Notes under the pieces: model-generated
Databases searched by the model: none
What the model was told of the DNA's origin: nothing
Seen by the model: only the letters and a program-made list of their open reading frames with translations
Assembly (NCBI GenBank): GCA_002421585.1
Contig: DIKD01000006.1
Location: 1-26,904, forward strand
Length of the DNA: 26,904 bases
Origin: Dehalococcoidia bacterium UBA5627
Lineage (GTDB): Bacteria > Chloroflexota > Dehalococcoidia > Dehalococcoidales > UBA5627
Direction: 5' to 3'
Translations under genes and position numbers: made by a program
In this document: in pieces, positions 1,575-9,956 of the stretch
How the letters are laid out: each line of letters starts with the position of its first letter
Numbering within the stretch: the first letter of the stretch is position 1

Positions 1575-2761
1575 TGTTTATTCAAATTGTCATAGCAGGG
1601 ATATTACTTTTAATACTGGTTAATCTTATCTTGAATTTAATATACTTAAAATCACCTTCACTTGAGAGTAAAATACCAGGGAATGCTCCGATGGTGTCCG
1701 TTCTGATTCCTGCCAGAAATGAAGAGGACAAAATAACACAATGTCTGGAAACACTACTGAAGCAGGATTACCCTGCTTATGAGATTCTGGTGCTGGATGA
1801 TGAATCCACCGATAGTACAGCCGGAATCGTTAAGCAGTTTGCCGCTAAAGATAACCGTTTGAGGCTTATTAGCGGATTACCTCTACCCGCCGGATGGTCG
1901 GGGAAAAATTATGCTTGCCATCAACTGGCAAAAGAAGCGAAGGGCGACTGGCTACTTTTCGTAGATGCCGATACTACTCATACGCTAAATATGTTAAGTG
2001 GTGTTATGTCATTGGCTCTCGAGATGAATACCTCCCTGCTCTCAGGATTTCCACGACAGATTGCAGATAGCCCGGTAATGAACATATTTACTCCGACCTG
2101 GTATTTTATATTGATGACATGGTGCCCTTTATGGTGGATTCAGCAATCGAAGAAAAATATGCCATCAATAGCTATTGGCCAGTTTATGCTGTTTTCACGG
2201 CGGGAATATTGGAGAATCGGTGGGCATGAAAGCGTTAAATCAAAAGTATTGGAAGATATATGGCTTGGTGTCGAAGTTAATAAACACGGCGGAAAACATA
2301 TCGCAGTGGATTTATCGGATGTGGTGTTTTGTAAGATGTATGATAATGTCAAGGGTATATGGAACGGATTGACGCGTTCTGTTTATGCTGTTGCCGAAAT
2401 TTCGGTTATTGCTCTTGTGGCACTGATTATTTTTGCTTTTATATGCTATTTAATACCTTTTTATTCTTTATGGCACGAATACTCGTTTACAGGCGTCGAT
2501 AAGCTGGTTGTGGCCATCATTATTTTTCAAATTGCTTCTATCTACCTGATGCGCTGGATGGCAGACCGCCGTTTTCACCAGAATTCAATTCTTTCTGTTG
2601 TATTGCATCCGGTCGGAATTATATTTCTCCTATTCGTTGTAGCTAATGCCGTTATACAAAAGCTTGCGCGTACCGGTATCAATTGGAAGGGAAGGCTGTA
2701 TACCGAAGAATCATCCGGTGATGAAAACGTTATAGAAACCGGTTCCGATAAAGCAATATGA
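1574..2761 (+). CDS. Family 2 glycosyltransferase, CrtQ/CruC/HpnB-like, membrane-anchored
   Basis: N-terminal TM helix; VSVLIPARNEE, LDDESTD, GWSGKNYACHQL, LLFVDADT (DxD), IGGHE..K..VLED; C-terminal TM helices and INWKGR. Confidence 0.85.
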   Translation: MFIQIVIAGILLLILVNLILNLIYLKSPSLESKIPGNAPMVSVLIPARNEEDKITQCLETLLKQDYPAYEILVLDDESTDSTAGIVKQFAAKDNRLRLISGLPLPAGWSGKNYACHQLAKEAKGDWLLFVDADTTHTLNMLSGVMSLALEMNTSLLSGFPRQIADSPVMNIFTPTWYFILMTWCPLWWIQQSKKNMPSIAIGQFMLFSRREYWRIGGHESVKSKVLEDIWLGVEVNKHGGKHIAVDLSDVVFCKMYDNVKGIWNGLTRSVYAVAEISVIALVALIIFAFICYLIPFYSLWHEYSFTGVDKLVVAIIIFQIASIYLMRWMADRRFHQNSILSVVLHPVGIIFLLFVVANAVIQKLARTGINWKGRLYTEESSGDENVIETGSDKAI

Positions 2762-2817
2762 TATCCTAAATTATTATCACTAATATACTCATAATGAATA
2801 ACTCCGATGCGTTTAGC

Positions 2818-2846
2818 TTGACAGGTTATACCTGAAGTTATACGAT
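2818..2846 (+). promoter_or_regulatory. Sigma70-type promoter for the kinase/regulator pair
   Basis: TTGACA (2818-2823), 17-nt spacer, TACGAT (2841-2846). Confidence 0.65.
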
Positions 2847-2920
2847 TAGACAGTAATTTTAATCTTATTATATTGCTTCAATTATATATTTCAAACCGGT
2901 TACATATTAAGGAGTTGTTG

Positions 2921-4855
2921 ATGCGTCAAATTCATGAAAACACCACGGATGACGTTGTGTCTTCGGAAGGAATAAACCCGGACAAAGGGAAAGCTTCATC
3001 TTCTGCAAGTCTGCAATATAGTATTATTAACGACTGGTATAAAGCAGTCCTCCAAAATGCCACGGAAGGATTCTTCCTTTCAGATTTAAATAGCAATATT
3101 TTGTATGTAAATGATGCCTATTGCAAGATGAGCGGCTATAGCAGAACGGAATTGTTATCCATGAACGCTACTGACCTTATCTTAAAAAAACCTGCAGAAG
3201 TTAAAAAATTCGAAAGCAACATTGAAAGAACTATTAGCAATGGTGAATCTTCTTTTGAAATCAAAAGCAGACGCAAAGATGGTAGCGTGATTGATCTTGC
3301 GGTTAGCTATAAGTATATGGATGTAGGTCCGGGTTTTATATTCTGTGTACACAGAGATATTACCGAACAAAAAGAGATAAATAAACAATTAATCGAATCC
3401 GAAGAAAGATATAATGCATTGGTGGCATTGGGGGGAAGGGTCGGTGAAGCCGTAGTAATAATGCAGGATATGGGGAACAACGAGGGTGTGCAAACTTTCG
3501 TAAGTGATGAATGGGTCAAAATTACCGGATACTCTATGGAAGAGTTACTGGGAATGCCGTTTTTTAACCTGCTTAAAGCCGAATATTATACTCCTTCATT
3601 GGACAGGCATCGCAGGAAATTAAAAGGTGAAACTATACCGGGACCTTTCGAAATGGAAATCATTAGAAAAGATGGGGTGGTAATCGACATCGAGTTTACC
3701 AGTGTTCATACTACTTATAAGGGCAAGCGGGCTAATGTGGCTTATATTAGGGATATCACAGAACGTAAGAGAGTAGAGAATGTCATTAAAGAATCCGAGA
3801 GTCGCTTACAAAGCGTGTTGTCTTCAATCGATGATTGGGTATATGTATTCGACAAAGAAGGGTGTTTTATTTCCTGCCATCCTGAACCGGCAAGAGATAT
3901 ATATGAACCAAAAGGCGATTTTATGGGGAAAAAGCATTCAGAGGTTATGCCGTTAAAAGTGGATAAACTATTTTGCACTGCTTTTAATAAAAATATACAA
4001 GGATTAGTGGCGGATTACGAATTTTCCAGAGATGTAAAAGGAAGGAAGAAATGGATAAACGTAAAGCTGTCACCGATGTTTATTGATGGGGAGTTTAACG
4101 GTTCTGTTGCTGTAATAAGAGATATCACACAACGCAAACAGGTTGAGCAAAAGCTTCGGGAATCGCACAAGCAATTACGTGCACTATCGGTACACCTGCA
4201 GTATATTAGGGAACAAGAGAGAAAGGATATTGCTCATAGAATTCATGAAGAGCTTGGACAGCTACTTACTGCCGTAAAAATGGATATATCATGGCTGCAA
4301 AAACAATTACTACACTGTAATGAAATCCCCGACAATAAAATGGTTGATATTCTCAAACTGATTGATATGTCTATACAAATAGTTAAAGGTGTTTCGGCGG
4401 AATTAAAGCCCGGTTTGTTGTATGAATTGGGTCTATTAGCCGCTATTGAGTGGCAAACTGAGGAATTTTTTAAGCTTACAGGAATTAAGTGCAATGTTTC
4501 TTCCATACCGGCTAAAATAGTGGTGGAACAGGAATTGGCGATTGCGCTCTTCAGTGTCTTCCAGGAGCTTATAACAAATGTATTCAAGCATGCCGAGGCT
4601 ACCTGTGTTGATATTGGATTAAGAAAACAGGGTAAAAAGATAACACTAACCGTCAATGACAACGGCAAGGGAATTACAGAAGAGCAAATCAATGCTCCGC
4701 GTTCCTTAGGATTAATCGGTATTCGCGAAAGAGTACAATATTGGGGCGGCACTGTTACTGTAATCGGTATTTCCGGCGAAGGGACACACGTAACAGTCAG
4801 TATTCCGCTTAATAAAAAGGGAGGATTAACTGCTAATGAAAGTCCTGATAACTGA
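2921..4855 (+). CDS. Cytoplasmic sensor histidine kinase with three PAS domains, HisKA_3 and HATPase
   Basis: Three PAS repeats ending in RDITEQK, RDITERK and RDITQRK; H-box ERKDIAHRIHEELGQ; ELITNVFKHA; DNGKG; LGLIGIRER. No TM segment. Start moved to ATG 2921 behind AAGGAG (ORF track gives TTG 2873). Confidence 0.92.
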   Translation: MRQIHENTTDDVVSSEGINPDKGKASSSASLQYSIINDWYKAVLQNATEGFFLSDLNSNILYVNDAYCKMSGYSRTELLSMNATDLILKKPAEVKKFESNIERTISNGESSFEIKSRRKDGSVIDLAVSYKYMDVGPGFIFCVHRDITEQKEINKQLIESEERYNALVALGGRVGEAVVIMQDMGNNEGVQTFVSDEWVKITGYSMEELLGMPFFNLLKAEYYTPSLDRHRRKLKGETIPGPFEMEIIRKDGVVIDIEFTSVHTTYKGKRANVAYIRDITERKRVENVIKESESRLQSVLSSIDDWVYVFDKEGCFISCHPEPARDIYEPKGDFMGKKHSEVMPLKVDKLFCTAFNKNIQGLVADYEFSRDVKGRKKWINVKLSPMFIDGEFNGSVAVIRDITQRKQVEQKLRESHKQLRALSVHLQYIREQERKDIAHRIHEELGQLLTAVKMDISWLQKQLLHCNEIPDNKMVDILKLIDMSIQIVKGVSAELKPGLLYELGLLAAIEWQTEEFFKLTGIKCNVSSIPAKIVVEQELAIALFSVFQELITNVFKHAEATCVDIGLRKQGKKITLTVNDNGKGITEEQINAPRSLGLIGIRERVQYWGGTVTVIGISGEGTHVTVSIPLNKKGGLTANESPDN

Positions 4856-5465
4856 TGACCATCCAATCGTGAGGCAGGGATTGCAGCAATTATTAAAGGA
4901 AACATTTGAAGCGATTGTTGTTGATGAAGCCGCTAACGGAACAGAGGCTTTGGGTAAAATAAAAACGGATAAATACGATATAGTGTTACTCGATATAGCT
5001 ATGCCGGGGATGAACGGACTGGAAGTTTTAAAAGAGATACAGAAATTTAATAAGACTTTGCCGGTGCTTATAATCAGCATCTATCCGGAAGACCAGTATG
5101 CATTGCGATGTCTGAAGGCGGGGGCTTCGGGGTATCTAACCAAGGACACCGCATCTGATGAACTGACACTCGCTGTTGAAAGGATACTCTCGGGTAAGAA
5201 GTACGTCAGCCCCAACCTTGCGGATAAATTAGCTCGTCATTTAAATGAGGGAACTCCCAAACTACCTCATGAATTACTGTCCGACCGCGAAGACCAAGTG
5301 ATGCGCTATATTGCTTCCGGCAAAACCGCGGCTGAAATTGCTGCCGAACTTAATTTAAGCGTTAAAACTATTAATACCTATCGAAACCGTATTATAAAGA
5401 AAATGCAGATAAAAAATAGCGCCGAACTGATACGCTATGCAGTGCAAAACCAACTGCTCAATTAG
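4836..5465 (+). CDS. NarL/UvrY-family response regulator (REC plus LuxR HTH)
   Basis: ITDDHPIVRQG, LLDIAMPG (phospho-Asp), GASGYLTKD, LSDREDQV, LNLSVKTINTYR. Overlaps the kinase 3' end by 20 bp. Confidence 0.95.
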   Translation: MKVLITDDHPIVRQGLQQLLKETFEAIVVDEAANGTEALGKIKTDKYDIVLLDIAMPGMNGLEVLKEIQKFNKTLPVLIISIYPEDQYALRCLKAGASGYLTKDTASDELTLAVERILSGKKYVSPNLADKLARHLNEGTPKLPHELLSDREDQVMRYIASGKTAAEIAAELNLSVKTINTYRNRIIKKMQIKNSAELIRYAVQNQLLN

Positions 5466-5677: not shown

Positions 5678-7369
5678 ATGGACAATAATATAGACAAAGA
5701 TAATGAACTGGATATTGATGTAGATTCCTCGATTGATGACATCACCAACCTGAAAAACAGTATTGAAGAATTAAACCAGAAAGCGGATGAAGCCAATAGG
5801 TTGGACAGGTCCTCACGTCTATCTGCCGATGAGGCAATTAAAATTGCAATAGAAATTGTGGAACAGGCAAGAAATATCAGTAAAAGCAGTAAAAAAATAA
5901 CTGATGAGGCGCGTAAAGCTTCTATGGAAGCAATAAAAAAAGCGGAGAAGGTAACAAAAGAAGCAGAATCCAGTGCAAAGGAATATAAACAGGCATTTGA
6001 AAGGGCTATTTCTGAAGCTGAAAAAAGAGCTAAGTGGGCAAAGGAAACCGCTGAAGAAGCAATATCATCTACACATGAAATTATTGATGAAGACGATAAA
6101 ATTGTTAAAGAAGCGCGGGGCACAGTAAAGGAAGCAGTAAAAGAAGCTAATAATGCGGCAAAAAGGAATGAAAAAACAGCAAAATCAGCCGAAGAAATGT
6201 CAGAAGCAGCCATAAAGTTGGCTCAGGAAGCTATGGTTACTGCGGAAGAAACTGAAAACAAAGTAAAATTTCATGTAGATGAAGCTATGCGAGTATCAAA
6301 CGAAGCCCTTAACACCGCAGCGGAAATAAAAAAATCCAGCCGGATACTGGACCTGGAAACAATGAAGGCACTGCAGGAAGCTACCGAAAAGGCTGAGAAT
6401 GCTAAAAAAGCTGCCGAAGAAACCAATAGGTCATATCAAAAGGCTTTTCTGGAAGCGATAAAATCCGTTGAGGAAACCAACATCTGGGCTAAAACCACTA
6501 CGGATAACGCTTTATTAAATTCTAAGGAAGCAATAGAAAAATCTCAGGAAACTGCAAATAAATCGGCTGAATTATCGAAAGAAGCCATGGAGTTGTCCAA
6601 AAAAGCCATTGAGACTGTTAATGAAGTATTATTGGAGTTAGAACAGAAGTCCGTAGAAATAAAAAACAAATCGGATGAGGTTATTTTAAAGGGAGAACAG
6701 GCAAAGAAAAAAACCATGGAAGCTGCTGAATCAGCTATTGCTGAATCAGAAAAAGCGGTTGACACGATTGAGCTTATCAGTGAATCGGCAAAAATAAGAA
6801 TTGAAGAGTGGGTTAATAATTCCAAGGTTGCCATAAACAGCGCTGAAGAAAACGCTTTATCAGCACAAAAAATGGCTGCAAAGGTACAGTTGGAAGCTAA
6901 AGAGGCGATTTCCAAGGCTGAGCAGTTATGCAGGTTGTCGCAAGAGGCTGCGGATGAAGCAATTAAGGCTTCAAAAGAAGCGGCTGAAGCGTCTAAAAGG
7001 GCTGCGAGTGAAGCCGGGGAAATGTGGGTTGATGTATTTAAAGGATTACTGGGTGAAACCACACGGGCGAGTCTATATGCTAAACAGACCGTAGAACAGA
7101 CATCTGATTTTGTACAGGACCCGTCACAGGAAGTTGAATTCGAGCATTCAAAGAATAAAAGAAAAGCTGTAGAAAGTAATCGCAATATTTCTGAACCTGT
7201 TGATGATAGTGAAAAAACTGTTAATGATACCATTGATGAAATAGAGGATGTGCCTTCGGTTTCAGAGTTTTCGGAGAATAAAGCTCCGGGAAAAGAATTC
7301 CAGGAGAAAACCAAAGACAGATTGGACTCTTTAACAAAAATGCTAATGTCCGATTCCGATGAAGAATAG
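5678..7369 (+). CDS. Ala/Glu/Lys-rich long alpha-helical (coiled-coil) protein with 150-aa internal repeats; function unknown
   Basis: SD GAGGGGG 8 nt before the ATG. About 400 aa of proline-free helical sequence lie between acidic N- and C-terminal regions. Confidence 0.85.
   Translation: MDNNIDKDNELDIDVDSSIDDITNLKNSIEELNQKADEANRLDRSSRLSADEAIKIAIEIVEQARNISKSSKKITDEARKASMEAIKKAEKVTKEAESSAKEYKQAFERAISEAEKRAKWAKETAEEAISSTHEIIDEDDKIVKEARGTVKEAVKEANNAAKRNEKTAKSAEEMSEAAIKLAQEAMVTAEETENKVKFHVDEAMRVSNEALNTAAEIKKSSRILDLETMKALQEATEKAENAKKAAEETNRSYQKAFLEAIKSVEETNIWAKTTTDNALLNSKEAIEKSQETANKSAELSKEAMELSKKAIETVNEVLLELEQKSVEIKNKSDEVILKGEQAKKKTMEAAESAIAESEKAVDTIELISESAKIRIEEWVNNSKVAINSAEENALSAQKMAAKVQLEAKEAISKAEQLCRLSQEAADEAIKASKEAAEASKRAASEAGEMWVDVFKGLLGETTRASLYAKQTVEQTSDFVQDPSQEVEFEHSKNKRKAVESNRNISEPVDDSEKTVNDTIDEIEDVPSVSEFSENKAPGKEFQEKTKDRLDSLTKMLMSDSDEE
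5828..7012 (+). repeat. Degenerate tandem repeat with 450-bp (150-aa) period, two full copies and one partial
   Basis: Y103/Y253, F107/F257 and W120/W270 align without gaps (TGG at 6035 and 6485). ISKSSK/IKKSSR/ISESAK lie at aa 67/217/367 and RAISEAE/EAIKSVE/EAISKAE at aa 109/259/409. Confidence 0.75.
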
Positions 7370-7382
7370 TACTTAGGAAAAT

Positions 7383-7413
7383 ATAATGCCTTATCATTTT
7401 GATAAGGCATTAT
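7383..7413. terminator. Probable bidirectional intrinsic terminator between convergent genes
   Basis: Perfect 14-bp inverted repeat ATAATGCCTTATCA-ttt-TGATAAGGCATTAT with short T-rich tails on both strands. Confidence 0.75.
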
Positions 7414-7438: not shown

Positions 7439-8611
7439 TTAGAACAGCGACGGAATATCCTTGAACGATTCTTCTATACCGCGATGGTCCCAGTCGATGC
7501 CGCCCTGCCTCTTCTTCGAGTTAGCAATGTATTCGATAGTTCTGGCAAAGTAATCCACCACTCTCTTGGAGTTAACCAGTTCGGAAAGAATCACAGTAAT
7601 ATCAATCATCCCTTTTCCTCTGGGGTAGTCACCGCTCCTGATTATTGCTTCGGTCGCCATCCCTTTAAGATCTCCGGATAATTCCTTTATCACATCCATA
7701 CTCATTGCGTCATGAGGACCCGTTGCTAAATATAAAGCTCTTCTGGCGTTGTTAGGATTGCATTTTAGAGATAAATCCCCAAGAGCTTCGGTCATTGCTT
7801 TTGTACCCTGCTCATTCTGGGCATCCTTATCTCTGAAATCGGTACTTTTGCCAAAAGGAATTCTAAAACCGGAAAGATCTTCTTTTCCATAACCTATTAC
7901 AGTCCAGCCGGATAGTGTTTGTATAATATCACCTGCATCAAGAACTTTTGAACCTATATACTTAGGCTGCGTTTCTTCACCGGCACATAACAAGTTATAA
8001 AACGGCCTGACAACCATATAATTAATTTTCGATAGATTATTTTTTAAGGAAACATTTTTCTTTATGAATCTCTGGTTATCTACTAAAAAGATAGCGTCTG
8101 CCGCAAGATATGTGGATTTAAGGCACGTTCCTACATTATAAATGGACCGACCTTCCGTAAGTTCCTCGTATTGGAAAGGAAGGACAACCATGTTATAGAC
8201 AGGTTTATCGTATCTCTCTTTAATTAAATGAGTTAACACGGATATCGCCCCGGAGCCGGTACCGCCTGCTGCAGAAGCTATTAGAAGAATAGCATCGGTT
8301 TCCGCAAATTTATCGGTGCCTCTGATGCTGTCTATTACTTTATCGCCGTCTTCGTTGGCGATATCAGCACCGACTTCATTCAGCTTACCGACCCCATGTC
8401 CGCCTGTTTTCTTGGCGCCGATAAGTATTCTATGGCGGAAGTCCGATTTAATATTAACAAGGCCGCTCAGGTCAGCTACATCTGTATTAACGGCAATAAC
8501 ATTGGTCAGTATATTTAAACCGCGCTGCGTATGCGCGACTTTACCCAAACGTGCGAACTCATCGGCAATTCTGCCTCCGCATTGTCCGCATCCTATAACA
8601 AGCAATTTCAT
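7439..8611 (-). CDS. Tubulin/FtsZ-superfamily GTPase of the CetZ-like (non-canonical FtsZ) type
   Basis: GCGQCGGRIAD, AVNTDVADL, GHGVGKLNEVGA, AAGGTGSG signature, FLVDNQ, LLCAGE, VLDAGDIIQTLSG. No FtsZ-type linker and C-terminal core peptide. SD AGGGGGG. Confidence 0.85.
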   Translation of the reverse strand: MKLLVIGCGQCGGRIADEFARLGKVAHTQRGLNILTNVIAVNTDVADLSGLVNIKSDFRHRILIGAKKTGGHGVGKLNEVGADIANEDGDKVIDSIRGTDKFAETDAILLIASAAGGTGSGAISVLTHLIKERYDKPVYNMVVLPFQYEELTEGRSIYNVGTCLKSTYLAADAIFLVDNQRFIKKNVSLKNNLSKINYMVVRPFYNLLCAGEETQPKYIGSKVLDAGDIIQTLSGWTVIGYGKEDLSGFRIPFGKSTDFRDKDAQNEQGTKAMTEALGDLSLKCNPNNARRALYLATGPHDAMSMDVIKELSGDLKGMATEAIIRSGDYPRGKGMIDITVILSELVNSKRVVDYFARTIEYIANSKKRQGGIDWDHRGIEESFKDIPSLF

Positions 8612-8702
8612 ATTGTCCCCCCTGTTGCTCAGGAAGCATCCTGATTAAACACCTTTATAGTTTATCATAAATAAGTTAACTAACCAACAAATTAATAAAT
8701 AA

Positions 8703-8730
8703 ATTGTATATAAATAACACCGGTTGTCAA
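8703..8730 (-). promoter_or_regulatory. Sigma70-type promoter for the CetZ-like gene
   Basis: Minus strand TTGACA (8730-8725, overlapping the upstream gene's stop), 16-nt spacer, TACAAT (8708-8703). Confidence 0.55.
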
Positions 8731-9956
8731 TGGTTCTCATAAAGGTTATGTAAATCGTCAAGATTTTTAATTCCCGAGGTTAGCTCTATAAAATCCCTAA
8801 CATCACCGGAACGGTCCCTTAAATCCCATAGCATATCTCCAATAGGGTTAACTGATGACGGACCACTGGCATATGTTCCGTAAAAAGCAAAATATGCCTG
8901 ATTGAGTCGCCGTATGTAATAACCGTTGGAAAGGATATACAACCTTCTTTCTTCCATATAGGCTTCGGCTTTTTCAATTTCCCCTTCCGCAAGATAATTG
9001 TCGACCGTAATGCGGATATTTCTCATTTCTTCATAATAATCAAAGTCATTACTTTCCGTATAAACAAAGATATTTTCTTTAAAATAAGAGGCATAATAGT
9101 TTTGATAAACCGTAGAGGCGATTTCATCACTGACAATGCCTGCTATCGTTTCATTTATTGTTGATATATGGCTGTCTTCATATATTCCCAGCAGGTTAAA
9201 TGCATATAAAAAACCTGTAGGCTTAAAAAACAAATATTGATGAAACCATTCCTCGATTGCTGTGTCTAGCGTGAATTCCAGCCCTGCATTGTTGGTAACA
9301 AACGAGGGAAAGGTAGCCATACCCCCTACTCTTAATACAATTGAAGAATATCCGAGTTCGTCTATTTCCGTTTCTATTTGAGTTATTTCATCAATAGTTA
9401 AATCCTGAACCAGAATTATTTCCCTCATCCGGTATATGTCATCTTTGGGTGACACAATTAAAAGATGCGGGGGGGATTCCAGCGAAAAATTAATAGGTGG
9501 AAATGGTATGTCAATTCCGATAATATCATTATATAAATATAAATCCAGTTGTTTTAATGTTTCTCTGATTTGCAGTTCAATTATTTTTTCCACCTTTTTC
9601 TTTTTGGATTCTCTGTCCTGCTTTAAAATATTCAATTGTTTTTGCATAGAAGATAATTCATCATTATCAATCTGGTCTTTATAATATAATATTTGAAACT
9701 CCAATGACGATATTTCTTCCAGTAAACTGAAAAAATCTACAACAAAACGGGGATCGTCGATTTTATAATCGTTATCGCCAAAGATAACCTGTTCTATTTC
9801 CGCTGTTAAAGTCCTGATTTCCCATTCAAATATGCTGAAACGATAAGGATTAATTATATTATTCAATGAACGGTCAAAATCATTTGCTGTTTGGCAGGAA
9901 CCAAACAATATACAAGCAATGAATAAAACTGAGCTAATAAGTACCTTGATTTTCAT
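8727..9956 (-). CDS. Putative lipoprotein, distant zincin/aminopeptidase-like protein with EExxH motif
   Basis: Signal peptide with lipobox-like LFGSC; AIEEWFHQYL followed by INETIAGIV, then RLNQAYFAFYGTY. Confidence 0.7.
   Translation of the reverse strand: MKIKVLISSVLFIACILFGSCQTANDFDRSLNNIINPYRFSIFEWEIRTLTAEIEQVIFGDNDYKIDDPRFVVDFFSLLEEISSLEFQILYYKDQIDNDELSSMQKQLNILKQDRESKKKKVEKIIELQIRETLKQLDLYLYNDIIGIDIPFPPINFSLESPPHLLIVSPKDDIYRMREIILVQDLTIDEITQIETEIDELGYSSIVLRVGGMATFPSFVTNNAGLEFTLDTAIEEWFHQYLFFKPTGFLYAFNLLGIYEDSHISTINETIAGIVSDEIASTVYQNYYASYFKENIFVYTESNDFDYYEEMRNIRITVDNYLAEGEIEKAEAYMEERRLYILSNGYYIRRLNQAYFAFYGTYASGPSSVNPIGDMLWDLRDRSGDVRDFIELTSGIKNLDDLHNLYENH

Follow-up and report, generated by a model that had tools for sequence, protein, structure and literature searches.

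How do cells that have neither a wall nor MreB keep a disc shape, and could a tubulin-like protein of the kind described from archaea serve a bacterium to this end? The question is raised by a gene at positions 7439 to 8611 of a 26,904-nucleotide stretch of DNA from Dehalococcoidia bacterium UBA5627 (contig DIKD01000006.1), called the window below. An earlier interpretation made from the letters alone, here referred to as the sequence-only reading, had taken the gene for a CetZ-like tubulin homologue with a role in cell shape. We find that its product is not a canonical CetZ by phylogeny or by host and belongs to a distinct clade of the CetZ-like branch, and that it ends in a peptide with an FtsZ-like core. 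The gene and the features of its product are the following.

7439 to 8611, minus strand: gene of the CetZ-like tubulin-superfamily GTPase, an intact open reading frame of 390 codons
8060 to 8605, minus strand: N-terminal GTP-binding domain, residues 3 to 184 (Pfam PF00091 Tubulin, 3e-31)
8249 to 8269, minus strand: T4 tubulin signature AGGTGSG, residues 115 to 121, read from the translation
7922 to 7945, minus strand: T7 loop and start of H8, VLDAGDII, residues 223 to 230, with the acidic D225 and D228
7541 to 8050, minus strand: CetZ_C domain, residues 188 to 357 (PF21011, 1e-18, profile positions 3 to 177 of 180)
7442 to 7462, minus strand: docking-type tail KDIPSLF, residues 384 to 390, after a low-confidence linker with a pLDDT dip at residues 375 to 377

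Every motif listed in the sequence-only reading (AVNTDVADL, RILIGAKKTGGHGVGKLNEVGA, FLVDN, LLCAGE and VLDAGDIIQTLSG) is found in the 390-residue translation, as is the AGGTGSG signature that it named. It had also placed the protein nearer to haloarchaeal CetZ than to FtsZ, and this is borne out by profiles, sequence matches and fold alike. The CetZ_C profile gives 67.9 bits against a cut-off of 21.6, with the same coordinates in a profile scan of the whole genome; the Pfam scan gave no match of the protein to FtsZ_C (PF12327), and the ftsZ equivalog TIGR00065 of NCBIfam reaches 55.1 bits against a cut-off of 295.2. The best phmmer matches in the PDB are Haloferax CetZ1 (4b46, 1e-40, over the full length) and CetZ2 (4b45, 6e-31), followed by Methanosaeta CetZ (3zid, 1e-13) and more weakly by FtsZs from about 1e-8, the M. 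jannaschii FtsZ at about 5e-6 and TubZ at 1e-5. An AlphaFold2 model made from a 57-sequence alignment has a pLDDT of 91.1 and a pTM of 0.90, with weak spots at residues 253 to 256 and 375 to 377 only. Foldseek places CetZ1 4b46 (TM 0.92, rmsd 2.3 Å), CetZ2 4b45 (TM 0.91) and Methanosaeta CetZ 3zid at the top for this model, and all FtsZ structures rank below the CetZs with an rmsd of about 3.5 Å. With a Halogeometricum CetZ-type protein the window protein shares 31% identity across 376 residues (3e-41), compared with 24%, over the N-terminal 244 residues only, for the FtsZ of its own genome (1e-8).

The nucleotide-binding loops are well preserved. T1 reads GCGQCGG, T4 is likewise intact, and G7, G9, G12, G116 and G119 are invariant or nearly so in two homologue alignments. 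AGGTGSG is the T4 sequence of 18 of the 29 members of the clade described below, against GGGTGSG in the haloarchaeal CetZ rows and GGGTGTG in the FtsZ of this genome. The acidic T7 residues of FtsZ, tubulin and CetZ complete the active site of the adjoining subunit. In the phmmer alignment D225 and D228 lie opposite D215 and E218 of CetZ1 (segment VVDSSEII), E218 being, as we take it, the residue mutated in the published GTPase-defective CetZ1, and xDxGDI is kept across the clade of the window protein. Since the two acidic positions align in this way, the catalytic T7 acid is retained, in agreement with the D..D pair already seen in the letters. Compared with six close orthologues the gene has a dN of 0.04-0.06, and the dN/dS of 0.013-0.031 in the four orthologue pairs with finite dS is a rough value, because dS is near saturation in these pairs; the gene is under strong purifying selection. 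A CetZ-like identity with an intact GTPase is in our judgement nearly certain, and the protein is very probably a polymer-forming cytoskeletal one.

A filament of the TubZ or PhuZ kind, segregating the DNA of a plasmid, phage or integrated element, is a very improbable explanation of the gene. TubZ and PhuZ are the best-known non-FtsZ tubulin relatives of bacteria, and the window protein is like them a non-FtsZ member of the superfamily in a bacterium; a related CetZ_C cluster (P0145) also lies among transposases and a group II intron. The TubZ match of 1e-5 stands against 1e-40 for CetZ1, however, and none of 50,697 phage records matches the protein at E<=1, and the 32 plasmid matches are all haloarchaeal, and because of these phage and plasmid results TubZ/PhuZ identity was excluded at the sequence level. 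Unlike TubZ and PhuZ, the gene has a chromosomal core-genome context and no TubR-like partner; its housekeeping surroundings are kept in closed chromosomes and no DNA-binding adaptor gene adjoins it. The P0145/P0280 cluster itself encodes a 418-aa CetZ_C protein, always followed by an uncharacterised protein of about 325 aa. Its setting, found twice within one sample, is one of IS66, IS605/TnpB, resolvase and group II intron genes, and the CetZ-like module may thus be mobile.

The position of the protein was examined by an exhaustive search of protein representatives, which returned 984 relatives at E<=0.001 and 65 at E<=1e-30, and by an IQ-TREE phylogeny of 101 rows. These comprised the three paralogues of the genome, 22 Dehalococcoidia copies (12 genomes), three named haloarchaeal proteins, 70 representatives of full length and an outgroup formed by this genome's FtsZ copies only, without tubulin, TubZ, PhuZ or archaeal FtsZ rows. 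The CetZ side and FtsZ are split at 100/100 by a branch of length 2.65. The window protein belongs to a four-row orthologue group (100/99) with one member each of genomes G014, G055 and G098. The common ancestor of the three paralogues, which are anciently duplicated, covers 23 tips (96/89) within a 29-row Dehalococcoidia-type clade (100/98), and this is nested in a 39-row clade (100/99) that leaves the haloarchaeal CetZ anchors outside. The anchors and a second Dehalococcoidia group descend from a common ancestor of 52 rows (64/84), the window protein being excluded. Separation from FtsZ, as proposed in the sequence-only reading, was thus upheld by the tree, but a place within the canonical archaeal CetZ clade was not. 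The strongly supported clade of the window protein is bacterial where its context could be read, and among the outer members of the 39-row clade the one that could be placed, P0139, sits among genes for MacB/FtsX and two FtsH of bacterial type.

Members of the second Dehalococcoidia group (in G009, G259, G272, G382, G112 and G132) are 30-34% identical to the window protein, score 100-138 bits with CetZ_C, have GGGTGSG as T4 and are without the D-I-P tail motif. At one locus of G009 (G009:C24:2000-7200, L105) two second-group genes and one window-type gene stand in tandem. Holding all Dehalococcoidia copies as one clade was not rejected by the AU test (p-AU 0.31), and one and two acquisitions are therefore both allowed.

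CetZ_C genes are present in 23 of the 25 other genomes of the order, closed genomes included, with one to four copies each; in the class they occur in 85 of 401 genomes and 50 of 222 genera, and in none of 266 sampled genomes of other Chloroflexota classes. That CetZ-like proteins exist in Dehalococcoidia is already in print, as Santana-Molina et al. 2023 (PMC9871819) included Chloroflexota-Dehalococcoidia among the CetZ-like sequences matched by a hidden Markov model of the CetZ C-terminus. The proteins are the same as those studied here. That survey gives them one sentence and holds nothing on paralogue groups, tail, partner gene, wall-loss distribution or function, and the family is sparse there but near-universal in the order here. 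Brown and Duggin 2023 identified CetZ confidently in Euryarchaeota only (PMC9856176), and recent abstracts still call CetZ archaea-specific. Relatives of the window protein are annotated generically only, as had been anticipated, and the claim that functional characterisation is lacking agrees with our literature search, which found no functional study of this bacterial clade.

The source of the window, G000, is a metagenome-assembled genome (MAG) of 1.23 Mb in 123 contigs, 81% complete with 2.25% contamination and with no rRNA in the assembly. These figures are the grounds on which an archaeal contig binned with a bacterial genome, or a decaying gene, might be suspected, a possibility of negligible weight that is refuted by closed genomes with orthologues. 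The contig itself carries bacterial genes, for PlsY, DegV, a PAS/HisKA_3 kinase with a NarL-type regulator, a DnaJ-like protein, PFOR, molybdenum-cofactor and leucine functions; orthologues stand in closed single-contig genomes of the order, contig GC of the MAG is unimodal, and the frame is intact under purifying selection. Homologues sharing 66-93% identity come under the names Dehalococcoidales, Dehalococcoidia or Chloroflexota bacterium, and the 79 related loci, one of them 99% identical, all come from such Chloroflexota-group MAGs save two likely mis-binned records.

Whether the genome has a canonical ftsZ besides the CetZ-like gene was also asked in the sequence-only reading. It has one on contig C12 (416 bits) with ftsA directly upstream, and a second on C67:3-1004 (locus L002; 349 bits), which is 62% identical to the ftsA-linked copy and has its own ELDIPTIIRQ peptide. 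Contamination as the source of this second copy (contig GC 0.458) was rejected because closed relatives carry two as well. CetZ_C genes number three, on the window, C90 and C37. The C37 paralogue is of full length, and a 36-base N run just after its T1 loop (L006:1974-2009) reflects a gap in the assembly or masking rather than a truncated gene. The closed genomes G055 and G098 have two canonical ftsZ and two or three CetZ-like genes each, the near-closed G014 has one ftsZ and three CetZ-like genes, and the closed G341 has one and two. Since closed genomes are also multi-copy, this state of the tubulin family is not a binning artefact. Two canonical ftsZ genes are unusual for bacteria and parallel the archaeal FtsZ1/FtsZ2 arrangement. 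A further, divergent FtsZ-like protein of 300 aa on contig C121 (L003:1294-2196) has Tubulin and FtsZ_C domains, a degenerate T4 and no C-terminal peptide; its gene stands between those of a HARE-HTH protein and a 318-aa family-less protein (792-1244 and 2246-3202), and the locus may be a separate small module or a mobile element.

Genuine MreB, FtsW/RodA and penicillin-binding protein (PBP) transpeptidases were not found in this genome at its 81% completeness. The result fits the loss of dcw and peptidoglycan genes already published for Dehalococcoidales (PMC10608941), and the host is, judged from its genes, apparently a peptidoglycan-less bacterium of that order.

On one point the sequence-only reading was wrong. 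It had stated that the protein has no FtsZ C-terminal peptide, but the chain ends in FKDIPSLF. Of 120 close homologues, 117 carry within their last 15 residues a loose motif, D[IVML]Px followed by two hydrophobic residues, which is still present in remoter clade members. The three paralogues end in KDIPSLF (window), KDIPTLL and KDVPTLL. As a measure of specificity, 1229 stop-closed frames (150 codons or longer) were counted across this genome: four of them, FtsZ (ELDMPSFFRR...) and the three CetZ-like proteins, have the strict motif D[IVML]P[ST][FLIMV][FLIMV] in their last 20 residues, and only six have it at any position. FtsZ C-terminal peptides of the order (8 copies from 5 relatives) read (D/E)(V/I/M)PSF(L/F/I/M)R, with EIPAFLR in one copy. 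The window protein thus has in common with bacterial FtsZ the superfamily, the GTPase domain and a tail core of D-x-P-S/T and two hydrophobic residues. Each FtsZ peptide is followed by a basic extension, whereas the CetZ-like tails lack it and end the protein, and their gene, unlike ftsZ, is not beside ftsA. In the haloarchaeal CetZ rows the chain ends in ESLF, DSLF or PLF and the proline core is missing, and mutation of LESLF in CetZ1 abolishes rod development (bioRxiv 10.1101/2024.04.08.588506).

Because the tail mimics the FtsZ peptide of its own genome, FtsA is present and SepF was not found (provisionally so, at 81% completeness), FtsA is a possible, if doubtful, candidate for the tail receptor. 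The C-terminus of this FtsA has an amphipathic segment. A complex prediction of FtsA (L001:2520-3704) with residues 341-390 of the CetZ-like protein, run without controls, scored 0.00 and weighs neither for nor against this receptor.

The tail core that is common to the FtsZ peptides of the order also speaks for the main rival reading, a division accessory, in which the CetZ-like proteins would assemble with or next to the Z-ring through the FtsA site and aid constriction or site positioning, much as in the archaeal FtsZ1/FtsZ2 division of labour. Wall-less cells, having no septal peptidoglycan synthesis, may need extra constriction machinery. We consider this reading possible, though on the improbable side. 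A single FtsZ suffices in G014 and G341, which nevertheless keep two or three CetZ-like copies. CetZ1 and CetZ2, the closest relatives that have been characterised, are described in published abstracts as acting on shape and motility, not on division, and the window gene is unlinked to ftsA-ftsZ or mraZ-mraW. Its own transcription signals and a conserved partner gene, which likewise stand against a division accessory, are these.

8703 to 8730, minus strand: sigma-70-like promoter TTGACA-16-TACAAT, 11 of 12 consensus positions
8616 to 8622, minus strand: Shine-Dalgarno-like GGGGGGA, 4 nt 5′ of the ATG
7383 to 7413, both strands: bidirectional terminator-like hairpin with a 14-bp stem, between two convergent genes
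5678 to 7369, plus strand: convergent partner gene, for a 563-aa Ala/Glu/Lys-rich helical protein with an acidic tail

The promoter, present where the sequence-only reading had put it, is the top sigma-70-like site of the region, on a consensus match only, and its -35 element overlaps the stop codon of the gene upstream. With its own promoter and the terminator hairpin the CetZ-like gene therefore looks monocistronic. The one sequencing run listed as possible RNA proved to consist of DNA contigs from a relative about 92% identical, and so bears on no question of transcription. The absence of dcw context was also rightly noted, as there is neither dcw nor ftsA context around the gene and its neighbours are the helical protein, a lipoprotein, a DnaJ-like protein, a histidine kinase and response regulator pair and PFOR.

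At 61 of the 79 related loci the orthologue has downstream of it a convergent reading frame of 450-920 aa in which Ala, Glu and Lys make up 38-54% of the residues, and the pairing is kept down to 58% identity of the CetZ-like protein and in the closed G055. All 61 partner proteins carry, near the C-terminus, the motif R-[LM]-x-x-L-[ATS]-[RK]-M-[YFL] and after it an acidic tail. For the 563-aa protein neither Pfam nor NCBIfam gives a family, and its only neighbours in the Atlas are Chloroflexota clusters of hypothetical proteins. A second helical gene of about 160 aa (…AYAAY…EVA…YK…) lies between the CetZ-like and the large helical gene at 45 of the 79 loci (e.g. L032 and L045); in this genome it was not found by tblastn, neither adjoining nor elsewhere. 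Upstream, 8727-9956 on the minus strand encodes a 409-aa protein that has a signal peptide of lipoprotein type (…LFGSC) and matches no family of Pfam or NCBIfam, and this gene is kept at 7 of the 79 loci, in close relatives only. Beyond the helical partner, 2873-5465 on the plus strand holds two genes that overlap by 20 nt, for a PAS-PAS-HisKA_3 histidine kinase and the NarL/LuxR-type response regulator, a pair found next to the module in the closest relatives only (6-8 of the 79 loci).

The surroundings bear on a third reading, in which the protein is a scaffold positioning surface or membrane complexes such as S-layer insertion, type IV pili or respiratory complexes, a role that has been proposed for some CetZs of archaea. 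In archaea, cetZ is often found linked to genes for the biosynthesis of pili and envelope (PMC9856176), CetZ1 is described in published abstracts as affecting assembly of the motility machinery, and the upstream neighbour here is a predicted lipoprotein. Beside the orthologues, however, no envelope or pilus gene is conserved, the helical partner alone being kept and the lipoprotein gene at 7 loci, and the scaffold is decidedly unlikely.

Compared with CetZ1 and CetZ2 of Haloferax volcanii and with Methanosaeta CetZ, the window protein has the same two domains and fold (TM 0.91-0.92 at about 30% identity), a tubulin-type T4, an acidic T7, a long helix after the C-terminal domain, a short hydrophobic tail (LESLF in CetZ1, DIPSLF here) and several paralogues per genome beside FtsZ. 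It differs from them in its bacterial host and its separate 39-row clade (100/99), in a T4 that starts with Ala, in the FtsZ-like D-I-P core of the tail, in a shorter loop where CetZ1 has its long M-loop, and in a conserved coiled-coil-type partner gene, which is not part of archaeal CetZ systems as described.

FtsW/RodA and CetZ_C were cross-tabulated genome by genome over the 401 genomes of the class. Of the 85 CetZ_C-positive genomes 84 are without FtsW/RodA; among the 316 CetZ_C-negative genomes 168 have FtsW/RodA and 148 have neither gene. The exception, G365:C2:1-3434 (L115), is a 3.4-kb contig of a congeneric MAG with RodA/FtsW and PBP2. This contig is probably mis-binned; its FtsW is the only one among 26 genomes of the order, the window's own included, and has no counterpart in G000. 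Were the RodA-PBP2 pair real, the genus would keep an elongasome remnant. G365 aside, both genes are found in no family code listed in both tallies.

Proteomic data from D. mccartyi BTF08, which forms discs in pure culture and barrels in co-culture, show the 'FtsZ/Tubulin GTPase' btf_0551, the FtsZ btf_0595 and the nearby hypothetical protein btf_0548 to be abundant or quantified only in pure culture (PMC8163811). The joint fall of tubulin GTPase and FtsZ in barrel cells with ring-shaped septa is a point for the division accessory (PMC8163811). The exclusion of FtsW/RodA and the BTF08 proteomics of a paralogue also lend support, of a correlative kind only, to the reading as a shape cytoskeleton.

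We favour a role in shape or envelope, analogous to that of CetZ1 in Haloferax, rather than in division, with confidence that stays a little below even. In outline, and going by what is known of the family, the protein would polymerise head-to-tail on GTP and hydrolyse GTP in the polymer. In the sequence the globular core is followed by a predicted long helix and then by a linker that is short and flexible, and the chain closes with the invariant peptide D-I-P-S-L-F/L. Binding of this peptide to a membrane-associated receptor, FtsA being the candidate, would probably dock the filaments at the membrane, and they would work with the convergently encoded Ala/Glu/Lys-rich helical protein. They could form an envelope-associated cytoskeleton, apart from division, that sets or stabilises the shape of a wall-less cell bounded by an S-layer. 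Taken as a whole, this model of a CetZ-like GTPase docked on FtsA as a non-division shape or envelope cytoskeleton beside FtsA-FtsZ is plausible, yet somewhat short of probable. A bolder version holds that the Dehalococcoidales and related wall-less Dehalococcoidia built a CetZ cytoskeleton after the loss of peptidoglycan and MreB, and that this FtsA-docked structure, not the S-layer alone, sets the disc shape and the shape switch. It would be made of two or three paralogues and one or two long helical partners, and its FtsA docking peptide D-I-P-S-L-L would be either convergent or retained. This version we hold to be rather improbable.

Several points weigh against the shape cytoskeleton docked on FtsA. 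What is said of polymerisation, GTPase activity, localisation and partners rests on inference, the absences of SepF and MreB are provisional in a genome 81% complete, and the tail motif was defined only after the sequences had been seen. One suggestion for the CetZ1 tail is that it contacts the adjoining subunit and not an adaptor (bioRxiv 10.1101/2024.04.08.588506). The BTF08 proteomic correlation took in FtsZ itself (PMC8163811). The exclusion of FtsW/RodA may amount to few independent events, because the loss of peptidoglycan is thought to be one ancient event in a single clade (PMC10608941). The 148 genomes negative for wall genes are without CetZ_C too. In G055, which we take to be Dehalococcoides, a C90-type paralogue lies about 48 kb from an ftsZ, and because of this gene spacing btf_0551 is probably a C90-type paralogue and not the orthologue of the window gene.

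For the biology of the group, these results mean that the order of the environmentally and biotechnologically important organohalide-respiring Dehalococcoides and Dehalogenimonas carries two to four CetZ-like genes beside one or two FtsZ in genomes of about 1.5 Mb. How its wall-less, MreB-less cells keep their disc shape is made a testable question by the gene family, its helical partner and its tail. For the evolution of the tubulin superfamily, a strongly supported clade, bacterial where its context is readable, is placed beside the archaeal CetZs, and a second Dehalococcoidia group sits nearer to the archaeal proteins. If a CetZ-based system does set the disc shape, it would be the first example known from bacteria of a shape system based on tubulin.

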